This document shows, piece by piece, positions 6,481 through 12,180 of a stretch of 12,455 nucleotides of DNA. Position 1 is the stretch's first letter. Each line of letters begins with the position of its first letter. The DNA lies in UHGV virus genome UHGV-1619099; one strand, given 5' to 3'. Origin of the DNA: a virus. The position numbers and the translations under genes are program-made. The notes beneath the pieces were generated by a model. The model had not been told where the DNA came from. It did no database searches and saw only the letters and a list, made by a program, of their open reading frames with translations.

Positions 6481-7026
6481 ATGAAGCTGAAACTTAAGCG
6501 GCCATCGCCAGAGGTGGTGCAAGCTGCACATGAAGAAGCTGTTAGCGCAAATCGTCGCCGTAAACGACCGCGCGGTAAACAGAGCCTTTATCAATCATCC
6601 CGTAATTCCGCCGCGCTGTGGGACCCGGACTATTGCGACGCGTTAATCGAGTTCTTCGACCGCACGTCGTGGGAACTTGTGCCTACGTCCAAGGGTGATG
6701 AACGCCCGTTGATTCAGGATAAACCACCGTCACTGGCCCGATTCGCCTTACACATAGGCGTCACTATCCCGATTATTAAGCTGTGGCTGCGTGAGATTCC
6801 CGCATTTGCGGAAGCCTATGAAACAGCACAGGCACTGGAAGAGGCGTATTTCACCGAGACAGGGGCCGCCGGCATCTCTGCTACGTTTGCTGCCGCTAAG
6901 CTGGGCCTTAGTAAAGAGAAACCTGTTGAATCGACAGAAGAAACCGCCCCGACGGAGATTGTTTTCAGTGTCGCGGAGCCTGTAGGTAAAATCGTAACAA
7001 CGAATATGGGTGAGGTAGAGGAATGA
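6481..7026 (+). CDS. terS: terminase small subunit (putative)
   Basis: 181 aa, basic N-terminal region, directly upstream of and overlapping the terminase large subunit (ATGA); ATG 6481 with aaagggga SD; call rests on synteny and size. Confidence 0.5.
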   Translation: MKLKLKRPSPEVVQAAHEEAVSANRRRKRPRGKQSLYQSSRNSAALWDPDYCDALIEFFDRTSWELVPTSKGDERPLIQDKPPSLARFALHIGVTIPIIKLWLREIPAFAEAYETAQALEEAYFTETGAAGISATFAAAKLGLSKEKPVESTEETAPTEIVFSVAEPVGKIVTTNMGEVEE

Positions 7027-8273
7027 GTATTCAGCTATCGGCCCCTCAGGCACTGTTCCTGAATTGTGACAATAAATACAAGGCATACGTCGGCGGCTTC
7101 GGTAGTGGCAAGACATTTGTTGGCTGCCTTGACCTGCTTACGTTTATGCTCAAGCACCCTGGTACGCGCCTTGGCTACTTCGGCCCGACCTACCCGGCTA
7201 TCCGTGACATCTTCTACCCGACATTCGAGGAAGCGGCTAACCTGCTCGGCCTTGATGTGCTGGTTAAATCCGGCGACAAAGAAGTCGTGGTTACTCGCGG
7301 TAAGACGGTGCTAGGAACGGTTATCTGCCGTTCGATGGATAACCCTGGCTCTATCGTAGGTTTCAAAATCGCTGCTGCGGTCGTGGATGAGCTGGATGTA
7401 CTGAGCCGCGAGAAAGCCGAGCTGGCGTGGAACAAAATAGTAGCCCGTATGCGTCTGGTTATCCCCGGTGTAATTAACCACATCTCTGTCACCACGACGC
7501 CGGAAGGGTTCAAGTTCGTCTATGCCAAGTTCAAAGAGAATCCAACACCGAGTTACTCGATGGTGCAGGCTTCCACACACGAGAATGCGCGATTCCTGCC
7601 ACCGGATTACATCAGTTCGCTGACCGAGACTTACCCGGCGCAACTGATTAACGCGTATCTGAACGGTGAGTTCGTCAACCTGACATCCGGCAGCGTGTAT
7701 TACGCCTATGACCGTCGCAAGCACCGCAGTAAAGAGACAATTCAGCCGGGCGATACACTGTACATCGGGCAGGACTTCAACGTTACAAAGAACGCCAGCG
7801 CTGTGTATGTGCAACGTAAAGACGGCTGGCACGCGGTGGCGGAACTGAAGGGCCTGTTTGACACGCCGGACACCGTGCGTGTTATTACTGAGAAGTGGAA
7901 GTCGCAAGGCCACCGCATCGTCGTTTACCCGGACGCCAGCGGCAAGAACCGCAAAACCAACTCGGCGTCAATCTCCGATATCGCGTTACTACAGCAGGCA
8001 GGGTTTGATGTTCGCGCTAAATCCGCCAACCCCCCTGTTAAAGACCGTGTTTTAGCGGTGAATACCGCGCTGGAAAAAGGTAAGCTGTGGGTTAACGACC
8101 ACTTATGCCCTGAGATAGCGAAGACGCTGGAGCAGCAGGCATACGACGATAACGGGGAGCCAGCTAAAGATGGCGTCATTGACCATATGGCGGATGCTCT
8201 CGGCTATCCTGTAGTTTACGAGATGCCGGTGGTTAAACCCGTAATCAACATCCCGGTGACTTTCGCACTTTAA
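7023..8273 (+). CDS. terL: terminase large subunit
   Basis: 416 aa; N-terminal Walker A P-loop VGGFGSGKT; sits between terS-like gene and portal. Confidence 0.8.
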   Translation: MSIQLSAPQALFLNCDNKYKAYVGGFGSGKTFVGCLDLLTFMLKHPGTRLGYFGPTYPAIRDIFYPTFEEAANLLGLDVLVKSGDKEVVVTRGKTVLGTVICRSMDNPGSIVGFKIAAAVVDELDVLSREKAELAWNKIVARMRLVIPGVINHISVTTTPEGFKFVYAKFKENPTPSYSMVQASTHENARFLPPDYISSLTETYPAQLINAYLNGEFVNLTSGSVYYAYDRRKHRSKETIQPGDTLYIGQDFNVTKNASAVYVQRKDGWHAVAELKGLFDTPDTVRVITEKWKSQGHRIVVYPDASGKNRKTNSASISDIALLQQAGFDVRAKSANPPVKDRVLAVNTALEKGKLWVNDHLCPEIAKTLEQQAYDDNGEPAKDGVIDHMADALGYPVVYEMPVVKPVINIPVTFAL

Positions 8274-9803: not shown

Positions 9804-11696
9804 ATGCTATTAACTTTAGCACCACAGGGTTTAACTATGAGCTTACTTACATCACTCATCAGCCATCAGATATGGCTGCAACGCACCGCATCCGGTGAGG
9901 TGAAAGACCTCGCACCGTTCATTAAGGAGATGCGGGATGAAATAAAACGGCAGGTGCTGTTATTCGGTGATGACGGGCGGAGCACTGCGCGACTGAATAA
10001 ACTGTTACTCGACCTTGAAGAAGCGCTAACCGGACTTACCGGCGATTGGCAAACAAAGCTGACAGAAGACCTTAAGGAACTGGCGGCATACGAGGCTGAG
10101 TGGAACGTAAAGACACTAACCGCCAACGTTAACGCGGAATTTGTTACGCCTACCGCCGAACAGGTGTGGGCCGCCGCCGATTTTCAGCCATTATCGTTAA
10201 ACGACAAGCCTGTTGACTTCACTAAATTGATGTCTGGTTGGGGTGAAACCGAAGTCGCCCGCCTCGTAACTGGAGTTAAGATGGGCTTTGTACAAGGTCA
10301 AACCACACGGCAGATTGTTAAGAATGTCGTAGGCTCTGGTGGGCTGGCCGACATCTCAGAACGTAACGCGGCTACAGTAATCCGCACCGCGCTGTCTCAT
10401 GTATCCAACGAAGCCCGTAACGAGACGTACCGCCAGAACGACGACATCATCGAGAAATACGAGTGGGTATCAACGCTGGACAGCCGTACCAGTACGATTT
10501 GCAGAGCCAGAGACAGGATGACGTGGGAAATCGGTAAAGGGCCGATGCCTCCGGCCCATCATAATTGCTTACTTGGGGATACTGTAGTATCTACCGGTAG
10601 TCCGGTTTCTAACATTTTTAAACGGGCGTACAAAGGCACTATAGTCTATGTCTCTACAAGGTCCGGTCGCACCTTGTCTATCACCCCAAACCACCAGGTA
10701 TTGACTACCAATGGTTGGGTTGCTTCCGGCCTTCTCAATGTAGGCGACAAGCTCGTGTGCGCTAAGGACTCTGCGCTCTCTCTCAAGCATAAGGAACACA
10801 ACGTTGTAGCCAAGTTCTCCGATTTGTTTAGTGCGGCTAATGTAGCGGTCAATCCTGCGGCGGTCCGTACAAGCCCAACCACCACCGAAGACTTCCACGG
10901 CGACGGAACCGACGGCGAAGTCGAGATTGTACTTGTCAACCGCCTTTCCTGGGATAAAGTCAAGTCCGGACTGAATAAGCAAATCATTGACAAGGAACTC
11001 CCAGTGGCTTCCCGCATTTATGACTCCCTCTCTGGCTTTGGCTCTGCGAAGCAGTTCAGCATGGTCGGCCTTTCTCCCTCGGACAGCTTCATGCGCCGCG
11101 GCGGAGAGAGCGAGGCGCTCCTCGGGAGTAGCTTTAGCCATTCTGATAAACATAGCGTCGCTGACACCGCGAATACTAACGCCGTTCTCTCTGAGAACGC
11201 GTATGACTGGGTTACACGAAACGCCGATAATCTTTCCGATTTCAACTGGTCCGATGCCGTCGGTATAGAGCTTGATGATGTTGTCGATTTGGTCTTTAGT
11301 GAAGCTGATTTTTGCGGGCATGTTTATAACCTCGAAAATGAACAGAACTGGTATCTCGCAAATGGAATTATAGCACATAATTGTCGCTCAACAACCGCGC
11401 CAGTAATCAGTTCTGAGTTCGACTTCCTCGATAAAGGCGCAAAACGCGCGGCTAAGGGTGCGGACGGTGGTATGCAGGTAAGTGCAGACACCACCTATTA
11501 TGAGTTCCTCAAACAACAACCTGCGTGGTTTCAGGACCAGGCGCTCGGCCCTGTTCGCGGTAAGATTTTCCGTAACAGCGGTATATCACCGGAAGAGTTT
11601 CGCGTAATATCTGTAGATGGTTTCGGGAATCCGCTCACGCTTAAGCAGATGGCGGAACTCGATAAACGTGTTGCTGATTATCTGAAAGGGGATTAA
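9804..11696 (+). CDS. head morphogenesis protein (MuF / SPP1 gp7-like) interrupted in-frame by an intein; start codon uncertain (9804 or 9837)
   Basis: 630-aa continuous ORF after the portal; without the insert the extein is about 358 aa and carries PPAHHN|CRS at the junction, resembling the conserved H-x-N-C motif of MuF-like proteins (from memory). Confidence 0.65.
   Translation: MLLTLAPQGLTMSLLTSLISHQIWLQRTASGEVKDLAPFIKEMRDEIKRQVLLFGDDGRSTARLNKLLLDLEEALTGLTGDWQTKLTEDLKELAAYEAEWNVKTLTANVNAEFVTPTAEQVWAAADFQPLSLNDKPVDFTKLMSGWGETEVARLVTGVKMGFVQGQTTRQIVKNVVGSGGLADISERNAATVIRTALSHVSNEARNETYRQNDDIIEKYEWVSTLDSRTSTICRARDRMTWEIGKGPMPPAHHNCLLGDTVVSTGSPVSNIFKRAYKGTIVYVSTRSGRTLSITPNHQVLTTNGWVASGLLNVGDKLVCAKDSALSLKHKEHNVVAKFSDLFSAANVAVNPAAVRTSPTTTEDFHGDGTDGEVEIVLVNRLSWDKVKSGLNKQIIDKELPVASRIYDSLSGFGSAKQFSMVGLSPSDSFMRRGGESEALLGSSFSHSDKHSVADTANTNAVLSENAYDWVTRNADNLSDFNWSDAVGIELDDVVDLVFSEADFCGHVYNLENEQNWYLANGIIAHNCRSTTAPVISSEFDFLDKGAKRAAKGADGGMQVSADTTYYEFLKQQPAWFQDQALGPVRGKIFRNSGISPEEFRVISVDGFGNPLTLKQMAELDKRVADYLKGD
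10566..11381 (+). mobile_element. intein (Hint domain, class 1: Cys1 ... His-Asn / Cys+1), 272 codons
   Basis: Block A CLLGDTVV at 10566; block B ITPNHQVLT...GWVASGLLNVGDKL; blocks F/G VYNLENEQNWYLANGIIAHN ending 11381; +1 Cys codon tgt 11382-11384; the ~170-aa linker between blocks B and F has no LAGLIDADG or HNH motif in this frame. Confidence 0.8.
10569..11321 (-). CDS. putative homing endonuclease encoded antisense within the intein: N-terminal HTH + Vsr/DUF559-like (PD-(D/E)xK-related) nuclease domain, about 250 aa
   Basis: Minus-strand ORF 10569..11378 from the ORF track; likely start is the ATG at 11321 (GAGG SD 8 nt upstream); HTH-like IIKLYTDGIGPVEIGKIIGVSCNPVIRVLRENGV; nuclease core LDFAVGSVAVEVFGGGW ... 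DRRRIDRYISRTKQIGELGYNVVFLMLE resembles the Vsr/DUF559 pattern. Confidence 0.7.
   Translation of the reverse strand: MPAKISFTKDQIDNIIKLYTDGIGPVEIGKIIGVSCNPVIRVLRENGVSIRGVSDAMFIRMAKATPEERLALSAAAHEAVRGRKADHAELLRRAKAREGVINAGSHWEFLVNDLLIQSGLDFIPGKAVDKYNLDFAVGSVAVEVFGGGWACTDRRRIDRYISRTKQIGELGYNVVFLMLERERRVLSAHELVAYIEKAGSNPTIGSQYLVVWGDRQGATGPCRDIDYSAFVRPFKNVRNRTTGRYYSIPK
11367..11395 (-). promoter_or_regulatory. extended -10 promoter (TGcTATAAT) on the minus strand driving the antisense endonuclease gene
   Basis: Reverse complement of 11367-11375 is tgctataat; weak -35 ttgttg 16 bp upstream; overlaps the intein C-terminal splice-junction codons. Confidence 0.4.
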
Positions 11697-12160: not shown

Positions 12161-12180
12161 AAGGCCCCTTACGGGGCCTT
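12161..12180. terminator. bidirectional terminator hairpin between convergent genes
   Basis: Perfect 8-bp stem aaggcccc / ggggcctt with loop ttac; on the minus strand it is followed by a U-rich tract (ttttatcatt). Confidence 0.6.

Follow-up and report, generated by a model that had tools for sequence, protein, structure and literature searches.

'VSR -1 ORF' inteins (ORF, open reading frame) were recently described in MuF-like minor capsid proteins of actinobacteriophages, in a survey confined to PhagesDB (Gosselin, Arsenault & Gogarten, bioRxiv 10.1101/2025.01.02.630785); the terms promoter, ribosome binding, start codon and synonymous do not occur in the main text of that preprint. As cited there, Gorbalenya 1998 and Gogarten 2002 reported antisense LAGLIDADG endonuclease ORFs in inteins, including that of Synechocystis DnaX. 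A related organization is that of the 'fractured genes' of Dassa et al. 2009 (PMC2677866), in which a free-standing Vsr-like or GIY-YIG endonuclease gene lies between the halves of a split intein; the same paper stated that Vsr-like endonucleases were 'not known to be present in inteins'. The prototype of the EDxHD (Vsr-like) homing endonucleases is I-Bth0305I (PDB 3R3P; PMC3239194). In Escherichia phage Snoke (MK931441), one gene is annotated as an 'intein-containing capsid morphogenesis protein', as also stated in its genome announcement (PMC6776784), and the intein of Jerseyvirus and Kagunavirus phages is mentioned in PMC8425127 and PMC11162368. Here we analysed a 12,455-nucleotide (nt) stretch of the virus genome UHGV-1619099, termed the window, whose positions are used throughout. 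Its MuF-like head morphogenesis gene carries this intein (10566..11381, plus strand), inside which purifying selection switches to the antisense frame. With a probability of about 0.8, we read the insert as a mobile class-1 intein of two-strand architecture, the endonuclease gene of which is read from the opposite strand.

The MuF-like head (capsid) morphogenesis protein is encoded as a precursor of 630 amino acids (aa) (9804..11696, plus strand; ORF list and translation). It comprises an N-extein ending in ...PPAHHN (9804..10565, plus strand), a class-1 intein of 272 codons or 816 nt (10566..11381, plus strand) and a C-extein that starts at Cys+1 (CRSTTAPV...) and includes the stop codon (11382..11696, plus strand). 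The N-extein was delimited by ungapped alignment to intein-less homologues and by sense-type constraint, and the C-extein by translation, alignment and sense-type constraint. In translation, the precursor reads ...GPMPPAHHN, CLLGDTVV...ITPNHQVLT...GWVASGLLNVGDKL...NWYLANGIIAHN, CRSTTAPV, with Cys1, T41-P-N-H44 and H271-N272 in the intein, the C-terminal end of which (...NGIIAHN) is followed by Cys+1. Three regions can be distinguished: an N-terminal splicing region with blocks A and B (intein aa 1-66; 10566..10763, plus strand), which overlaps the C-terminal tail of the endonuclease on the minus strand; an interior (aa 67-252; 10764..11321, plus strand), which is a sense read-through of the antisense gene and is predicted to be unstructured; and the C-terminal splicing blocks F and G (aa 253-272, VYNLENEQNWYLANGIIAHN; 11322..11381, plus strand), assigned from sense-type constraint and TIGR01443. 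The Pfam model Intein_splicing (PF14890) scores 42.8 bits (gathering threshold 35.8), TIGR01445 (intein N-terminal) 25.4 against a cut-off of 24.5, and TIGR01443 (intein C-terminal) 18.8 against a cut-off of 15.6. No Pfam domain was found in the sense frame of the interior. AlphaFold2 prediction of the sense intein gave a block mean pLDDT (predicted local distance difference test) of 57-87 at aa 11-70, which form β-strands, and of 65-77 at aa 231-272, with β-strands at aa 234-271; pLDDT falls below 50 at aa 69-106 and 125-223. The sequence-only reading had identified the insert as a class-1 intein with the same boundaries, which the three profiles and the translation bear out. Its description as canonical and mini-intein-like has to be abandoned, since ~186 of the 272 codons are read-through of an opposite-strand Vsr-like endonuclease gene that it overlooked. 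The novelty that it implied is likewise lost to the GenBank annotation and the three publications cited above.

Comparison with intein-less relatives revealed that, by alignment, the insertion is precise and lies in the most conserved motif of the MuF-like protein. The protein spliced in silico has 358 residues and aligns without gaps, at 95% identity, to the 358-residue intein-less proteins of vB-Eco-KMB35 and Bas75; with a slash for the splice site, the junction is PPAHHN/CRSTT in the window and PPAHPN/CRSTT in the two intein-less phages. The predicted junction peptide is ...GPMPPAHHN-CRSTTAPVISSEFDFLDK, and the intein-less site of KMB35 and Bas75 is CCAGCCCATCCTAAT/TGCCGAAGTACC. With a 600-nt query across the insert-free junction, matches covering at least 80% of the query were obtained for 145 phage records, and among the matches listed each is one piece over 100%. 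The host assignment is given by a Pfam Phage_Mu_F (PF04233) match in the N-extein (aa 159-255 of the precursor) and by PHROGs, in which the protein belongs to phrog_241 'head morphogenesis' (1.3e-147). Among 55 distant host proteins the site follows the consensus P-x-P-P-x-H-x-N-C, then ... H-N, then C-R-(C/S). Insertion at the H-x-N/C motif, excision exact relative to intein-less alleles and continuous alignment of such homologues across the junction, all expected by the earlier reading, are thus borne out.

Judged from these features, the insert is a real class-1 intein that is predicted to splice itself, and it is reasonable to suppose that splicing would have to come before head assembly. 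The catalytic positions (Cys1, TxxH, HN and Cys+1) are retained in all 13 close alleles and all 55 distant hosts, and the splicing blocks are under purifying selection in the sense frame. Moreover, the motif broken up by the insert is the most conserved one of a head-assembly protein that belongs to a conserved block of packaging and head genes. These three observations speak against the idea that the Hint domain is a splicing-dead relic and that the head protein works unspliced, or is cleaved and not spliced. A point in favour of such a relic is that the window alone has His for Pro at extein position -2, a change with a potential effect on the efficiency of splicing; we regard the relic as highly improbable. 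Extein residue -2 (10560-10562) is His in the window and Pro in 12 other intein-bearing alleles and in the intein-less ones; residues adjoining a splice site can alter splicing efficiency.

On the minus strand, a 269-codon ORF (10569-11378 in the ORF list) fills the intein almost exactly, and its translation resembles that of a genuine protein. The gene within it encodes a 250-aa protein with a helix-turn-helix (HTH) module and a Vsr-like (EDxHD-related) endonuclease (10569..11321, minus strand), starting at ATG 11321-11319 and ending at the TAA stop 10571-10569, in codon-aligned (-1) register with the intein. Intein aa 67-252 are the codon-aligned reverse complement of this gene, the last ~60 codons of which run antisense through blocks A and B; its stop codon is the complement of intein Leu2 (TTA). 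We compared 13 gap-free close alleles by their pairwise codon differences, counting those synonymous in the sense frame only and those synonymous in the antisense frame only. Sense-only differences dominate in the N-extein (5863 against 430 antisense-only) and the C-extein (2726 against 151), and also in intein aa 253-272 (186 against 22); they outnumber antisense-only differences less strongly in aa 1-66 (447 against 235), and the relation is inverted in aa 67-252 (371 against 1984). Broken down by sense codon position (1/2/3), the fractions of variable sites are 0.41/0.28/0.89 in the N-extein, 0.23/0.14/0.88 in the C-extein and 0.05/0.05/0.55 in intein aa 253-272; in aa 67-252 they are 0.62/0.12/0.30, the antisense third position being the most variable. 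Purifying selection therefore switches to the antisense frame inside the intein. Correspondingly, the antisense protein is 78-98% identical among the alleles and the sense translation of the same bases 53-90%, and the antisense ORF is intact at 250 aa in 13/13 alleles. Between the sense-favoured blocks A and B there is an antisense-favoured pocket at intein aa 13-30 (10602-10655), where the tail of the endonuclease carries the motif SAFVRPFxNVR. This pocket suggests true dual coding of the endonuclease tail with the region of blocks A and B.

The antisense frame is also the better conserved one at larger distance. Searching the same nucleotides (10773-11315) by tblastn against five distant phages (Vibrio, Gordonia, Klebsiella, Aaphi23 and Mycobacterium phages) gave 145, 98.6, 82.8, 78.2 and 58.5 bits for the antisense frame, compared to 63.9, 43.5, 34.3 and 28.5 bits for the sense frame, which found nothing in the fifth; the antisense frame is thus 2-3 times better conserved. 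In all five annotated phages, the gene of a MuF-like or head protein runs on one strand and the endonuclease match on the other.

The antisense protein is predicted by AlphaFold2 with a pLDDT of 83 and comprises an HTH DNA-binding module at aa 9-45 (11187..11297, minus strand) and a Vsr-like nuclease core at aa 105-180 (10782..11009, minus strand; ...E108...YNLD134F...VAVE143VFGGGWA150...), the latter located by hidden Markov model alignment to the catalytic domain of I-Bth0305I. A family profile built from the window protein and 13 database relatives matches this catalytic domain (PDB 3r3p) with an E of 9.7e-6. Pfam matches among family members comprise HTH_7, HTH_23, HTH_28, HTH_58 and REase_MTES_1575, and one relative carries the JGI name 'very-short-patch-repair endonuclease'. 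The protein thus combines a Vsr-like nuclease fold, with sequence similarity to the EDxHD family, and an N-terminal modular DNA-binding region of HTH type. Among 162 family members, residues E108, Y131, D134 and E143 show no or almost no variation. The number of tandem HTH modules varies from one to at least three within the family.

Because of its distant conservation, the direction of selection, its homology and fold and the conserved arrangement described below, the antisense ORF is a real gene. The opposite view would be a canonical intein with an in-frame linker or a degenerate endonuclease, whose long antisense ORF is a by-product of a stop-poor, codon-aligned frame. Codon-aligned antisense frames are indeed often long: that of the terminase large subunit gene (7023-8273) has an open run of 218 codons, and ORF length alone in such a frame is therefore weak evidence for a gene. 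Matches of the single sequence to Pfam stay below threshold, and published annotations of these enterobacterial phages do not give the antisense ORF the status of a functional gene. Against a by-product stand the reversed direction of selection and the far better conservation of the antisense frame in distant phages. Nor does a by-product agree with a confident fold and homology to Vsr and I-Bth0305I opposite a sense interior that is predicted to be unfolded, or with 1,403 related cluster representatives at E <= 1e-30. A chance open frame was considered and rejected: a 269-codon run has a probability of ~8.5e-4 in the window alone, yet the arrangement recurs in 79/80 loci, and stop-forming codons are avoided. 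The by-product explanation is already contradicted by the present results, and we give it almost no credence.

A scan of viral contigs yielded 462 relatives. Of the best 80 of these loci, 79 have an open frame on the opposite strand over the full length of the endonuclease match, and all 80 have the two frames codon-aligned; a single continuous sense ORF is present in the window (630 codons) and in 79/80 related loci. The same holds for five further metagenomic contigs that were sampled, all of which have the opposite strand open in the same register. Over the 80 loci, the codons TTA, CTA and TCA, which are stops in the sense frame, make up 3 of 18,905 endonuclease codons against ~490 expected, and this avoidance keeps the intein in one piece. 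The 55 non-redundant host proteins include 47 with Intein_splicing, 32 with Phage_Mu_F and 4 with the related Phage_min_cap2. An exhaustive search of 1.84 billion cluster representatives with a profile retrieved the 1,403 proteins mentioned above; the members sampled (P0009, P0013, P0038, P0064 and P0172) all lie antisense inside a MuF intein at H-x-N/C. That some relatives (e.g. P0013, P0064 and P0172) are free-standing genes was considered and rejected, all being antisense inside a MuF intein on inspection.

Several loci deserve separate mention. The endonucleases P0038 (locus L102, 165-1505) and P0009 (L009) have 446 and 353 aa, and the sense frame stays open even across the 1.3-kb antisense gene. 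L009 was considered as a split-intein variant and discarded, the break there being due to scaffold Ns. The sole exception of the 80 loci is L021 (~1224-1285), where sense and antisense frames both shift at one place; this could be an assembly indel or error, or a decaying copy. In L104 (2363-4192) and L009 (4665-5726), the gene caller picked the antisense ORF and the MuF gene was truncated or dropped; in L104 a second plus-strand ORF was also picked.

The start region of the antisense gene coincides with splicing blocks F and G. The block F His codon in 'GHVYNL', read as its reverse complement, supplies the ATG (11321-11319) of that gene. A Shine-Dalgarno (SD) sequence GAGG lies 8 nt upstream of this ATG (11330..11333, minus strand), as the reverse complement of the Asn and Leu codons (AAC CTC) of block F. 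Further upstream, a candidate extended -10 promoter element TGCTATAAT (11367..11375, minus strand) corresponds, as reverse complement, to the Ile-Ile-Ala codons (ATT ATA GCA) of block G 'NGIIAHN'; it is a perfect match, situated 38-46 nt upstream of the ATG (11375-11367). It came to light on inspection of the sequence and was then put to the test with codon statistics. Among the close alleles, TATAAT is retained in 11/13 (TATAAC in the other two) and the GAGG in 12/13. Across 48 diverse loci, the codon opposite the block F His is ATG in 41 and GTG in 7, and an SD-like motif precedes the antisense start in 45. The Ile-Ile pair is encoded as ATT-ATA in 18/23 diverse viral loci, compared to ~5% expected from the Ile codon usage of the same genes (P ~1e-19), and 15 of these 18 loci also have the upstream TGn. 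For Ile-Val, the usual codon pair is ATT-GTA, corresponding to TACAAT on the opposite strand. This codon bias is strong evidence that the sequence of the opposite strand is constrained, and the extended -10 would presumably act as a promoter.

Taken together, these data allow a broader proposal that we put forward tentatively, at slightly less than even odds. The whole expression cassette (TGnTATAAT, GAGG and ATG/GTG) would lie on the reverse complement of the most conserved splicing blocks, and the tail of the gene would be dual-coded with blocks A and B. The family would be very large, mostly unannotated and not restricted to actinophages, with at least 1,400 clusters at 50% identity that are directed at the MuF H-x-N/C site and span phages of Proteobacteria, Actinobacteria and marine hosts. 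If so, the splicing motif and endonuclease expression constrain each other, and the two genes are inseparable by recombination.

Nucleotide identity of the intein exceeds that of the exteins in 77/78 pairs of the 13 alleles. Between the window and LPSE1, for instance, the intein is 95.7% identical, the N-extein 69.1% and the C-extein 83.8%. Synonymous-type sites have a diversity of 0.18 in the interior of the intein (antisense third positions), compared to 0.46 and 0.40 in the two exteins (sense third positions), and dual-coding constraint alone thus appears insufficient to explain the difference between intein and exteins. In addition, the intein is patchily distributed among Guernseyvirinae: it is common in Salmonella Jerseyvirus phages and rare in Escherichia coli Kagunavirus (65 Salmonella vs 2 Escherichia records), and the exteins of the window are Kagunavirus-like. 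Both identity and distribution are as would be expected from recent homing across genera.

The two-strand intein may work as follows. On the plus strand, the whole 272-codon insert would be translated within the MuF-like precursor; the Hint blocks (aa 1-66 and ~234-272) would fold, excise the insert and join ...PPAHHN to CRSTT..., with the 186-residue interior as an unstructured loop at the usual point of endonuclease insertion. On the minus strand, the interior would be transcribed and translated as a separate gene for the 250-aa HTH and Vsr-like nuclease. In a mixed infection, this endonuclease would cut intein-less MuF alleles at or near the H-P-N/C-R site, and repair from intein-bearing genomes would copy the whole element in by homing.

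Several observations weigh against this reading. Searches of Pfam, PHROGs and NCBIfam with the single antisense sequence gave only sub-threshold HTH and REase matches, and the homology became clear only once the family profile was used. A terminator at 12180-12161 lies upstream of the endonuclease gene on the minus strand, and a read-through minus-strand transcript must cross it. A generic promoter and terminator scan gave no convincing minus-strand signal close to the endonuclease gene and no promoter adjoining it; the candidate extended -10 went unreported because its -35 is poor. Part of the high intein identity could stem from dual-coding constraint instead of transfer. Finally, the position of the general base His213 of I-Bth0305I is occupied by Ala150 (codon 10872-10874, GGGWACT), and no acidic residue of the window protein aligns with D222. 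The equivalent of His213 is His in 141/162 family members and Ala in 13/13 close alleles. With E108 and the metal-binding D134 present, the composite E-D-x-H-D catalytic motif is incomplete, and the protein is therefore termed 'related to' the family and not a full member. Its nuclease chemistry is uncertain; the subgroup may use other residues, or nick instead of cut.

These substitutions are the basis of the most serious rival, according to which the antisense protein is real and selected but no longer cleaves both strands in this Guernseyvirinae subgroup. It would be a nickase, a DNA-binding factor or an enzyme with other catalytic residues, and the intein would be kept mainly by vertical descent and ordinary recombination. 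In I-Bth0305I itself, H213A and D222A/N served to inactivate the enzyme (PMC3239194), which fits a loss of cleavage. However, the antisense frame is under strong purifying selection with the ORF intact in every close allele, and E108, D134 and E143 are kept. The intein is also 94-96% identical where N-exteins are only 69%, besides being more alike in nearly all pairs, and its patchy distribution together with this identity is the expected trace of recent homing. We therefore consider the loss of cleavage unlikely, though less so than the other two rivals, and retain the mobile two-strand intein with an antisense endonuclease.

The window derives from a Guernseyvirinae siphophage, Kagunavirus/Jerseyvirus-like, whose closest named match is Snoke (94% over the MuF-like gene); its contig is IMGVR_UViG_3300045988_011391. 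The gene order is the same as in Snoke: terminase small subunit, terminase large subunit, portal, MuF-like gene and Hoc-like decoration protein. The intein-containing gene is present in full in 57 records. The MuF gene may start at 9804 or at 9837 (Met); Snoke and most Jerseyvirus records use the equivalent of 9837, and that of 9804 is the annotated start in KMB35, Bas75 and PK1. Several GenBank records call the MuF protein 'NAD+--asparagine ADP-ribosyltransferase'. A GC-rich hairpin AAGGCCCCGTAAGGGGCCTT (12161-12180) separates the Hoc-like decoration gene from a convergent minus-strand gene, and is a bidirectional terminator in the Snoke annotation.

The gene described here is carried by more than 50 sequenced Salmonella and E. 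coli phages studied for biocontrol or therapy. Between Jerseyvirus and Kagunavirus phages, the element is a probable driver of gene flow around the head-morphogenesis module. Metagenome gene callers sometimes choose the antisense ORF, with truncation or loss of the essential MuF gene. The locus is, moreover, an unusually clean natural 750-nt antisense overlapping gene pair, useful as a benchmark for overlapping-gene detection because the direction of selection measurably switches along one ORF. It also supports the 'splicing first, endonuclease invades later' model of intein evolution.

Compared to known systems, the intein of the window is the same as that annotated in Snoke and Jerseyvirus, at the same site and with 95.7% nucleotide identity, where the annotations describe it just as 'a large intein'. 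The antisense gene is unannotated in the Snoke and E2010 records; PK1 has it as a 'hypothetical protein', and in the other listed records the host gene is the only feature named. I-Bth0305I resides in a group I intron of recA and is encoded on the sense strand, whereas the window protein is antisense inside an intein, has Ala for His213 and leaves D222 unaligned. The locus resembles the fractured genes in that a phage gene contains an intein and a free-standing gene for a Vsr-like endonuclease occupies the point where intein endonucleases are inserted. Fractured genes, however, have the host gene and intein in two ORFs joined by trans-splicing, whereas the sense ORF of the window is continuous, as expected for cis-splicing, owing to the inverted orientation of the endonuclease gene and its avoidance of the three sense-stop codons; the locus is accordingly not a fractured gene. 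In the antisense LAGLIDADG inteins, as described in the preprint, the endonuclease is likewise opposite the intein strand and the intein frame reads through it, and the nuclease family and host proteins differ.

The closest counterparts are the 'VSR -1 ORF' inteins, which share the MuF-like host protein, intein class 1, the endonuclease type, the antisense -1 frame and the link to 3R3P and Vsr; in both, the sense intein frame reads through the antisense ORF. The phages Vivi2, Angelicage, Affeca, Fosterous and Sejanus, which the preprint lists under this label, are tblastn homologues of the window antisense protein (28-37% identity, E 2e-10 to 6e-25), and in the annotations of Vivi2 and Sejanus the match is on the strand opposite to the MuF gene. 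Unlike these actinophages, the window belongs to an enterobacterial Guernseyvirinae phage, whose subgroup is without the catalytic His. Its start codon, SD sequence and candidate -10 lie within blocks F and G, and the tail of its gene overlaps blocks A and B. Absent from the preprint text are the selection flip, the expression signals within blocks F and G, how large the family is and which hosts it spans, and the His loss of the subgroup. The architecture, frame and host protein are already described there, and the window is a homologous member from an enterobacterial phage.

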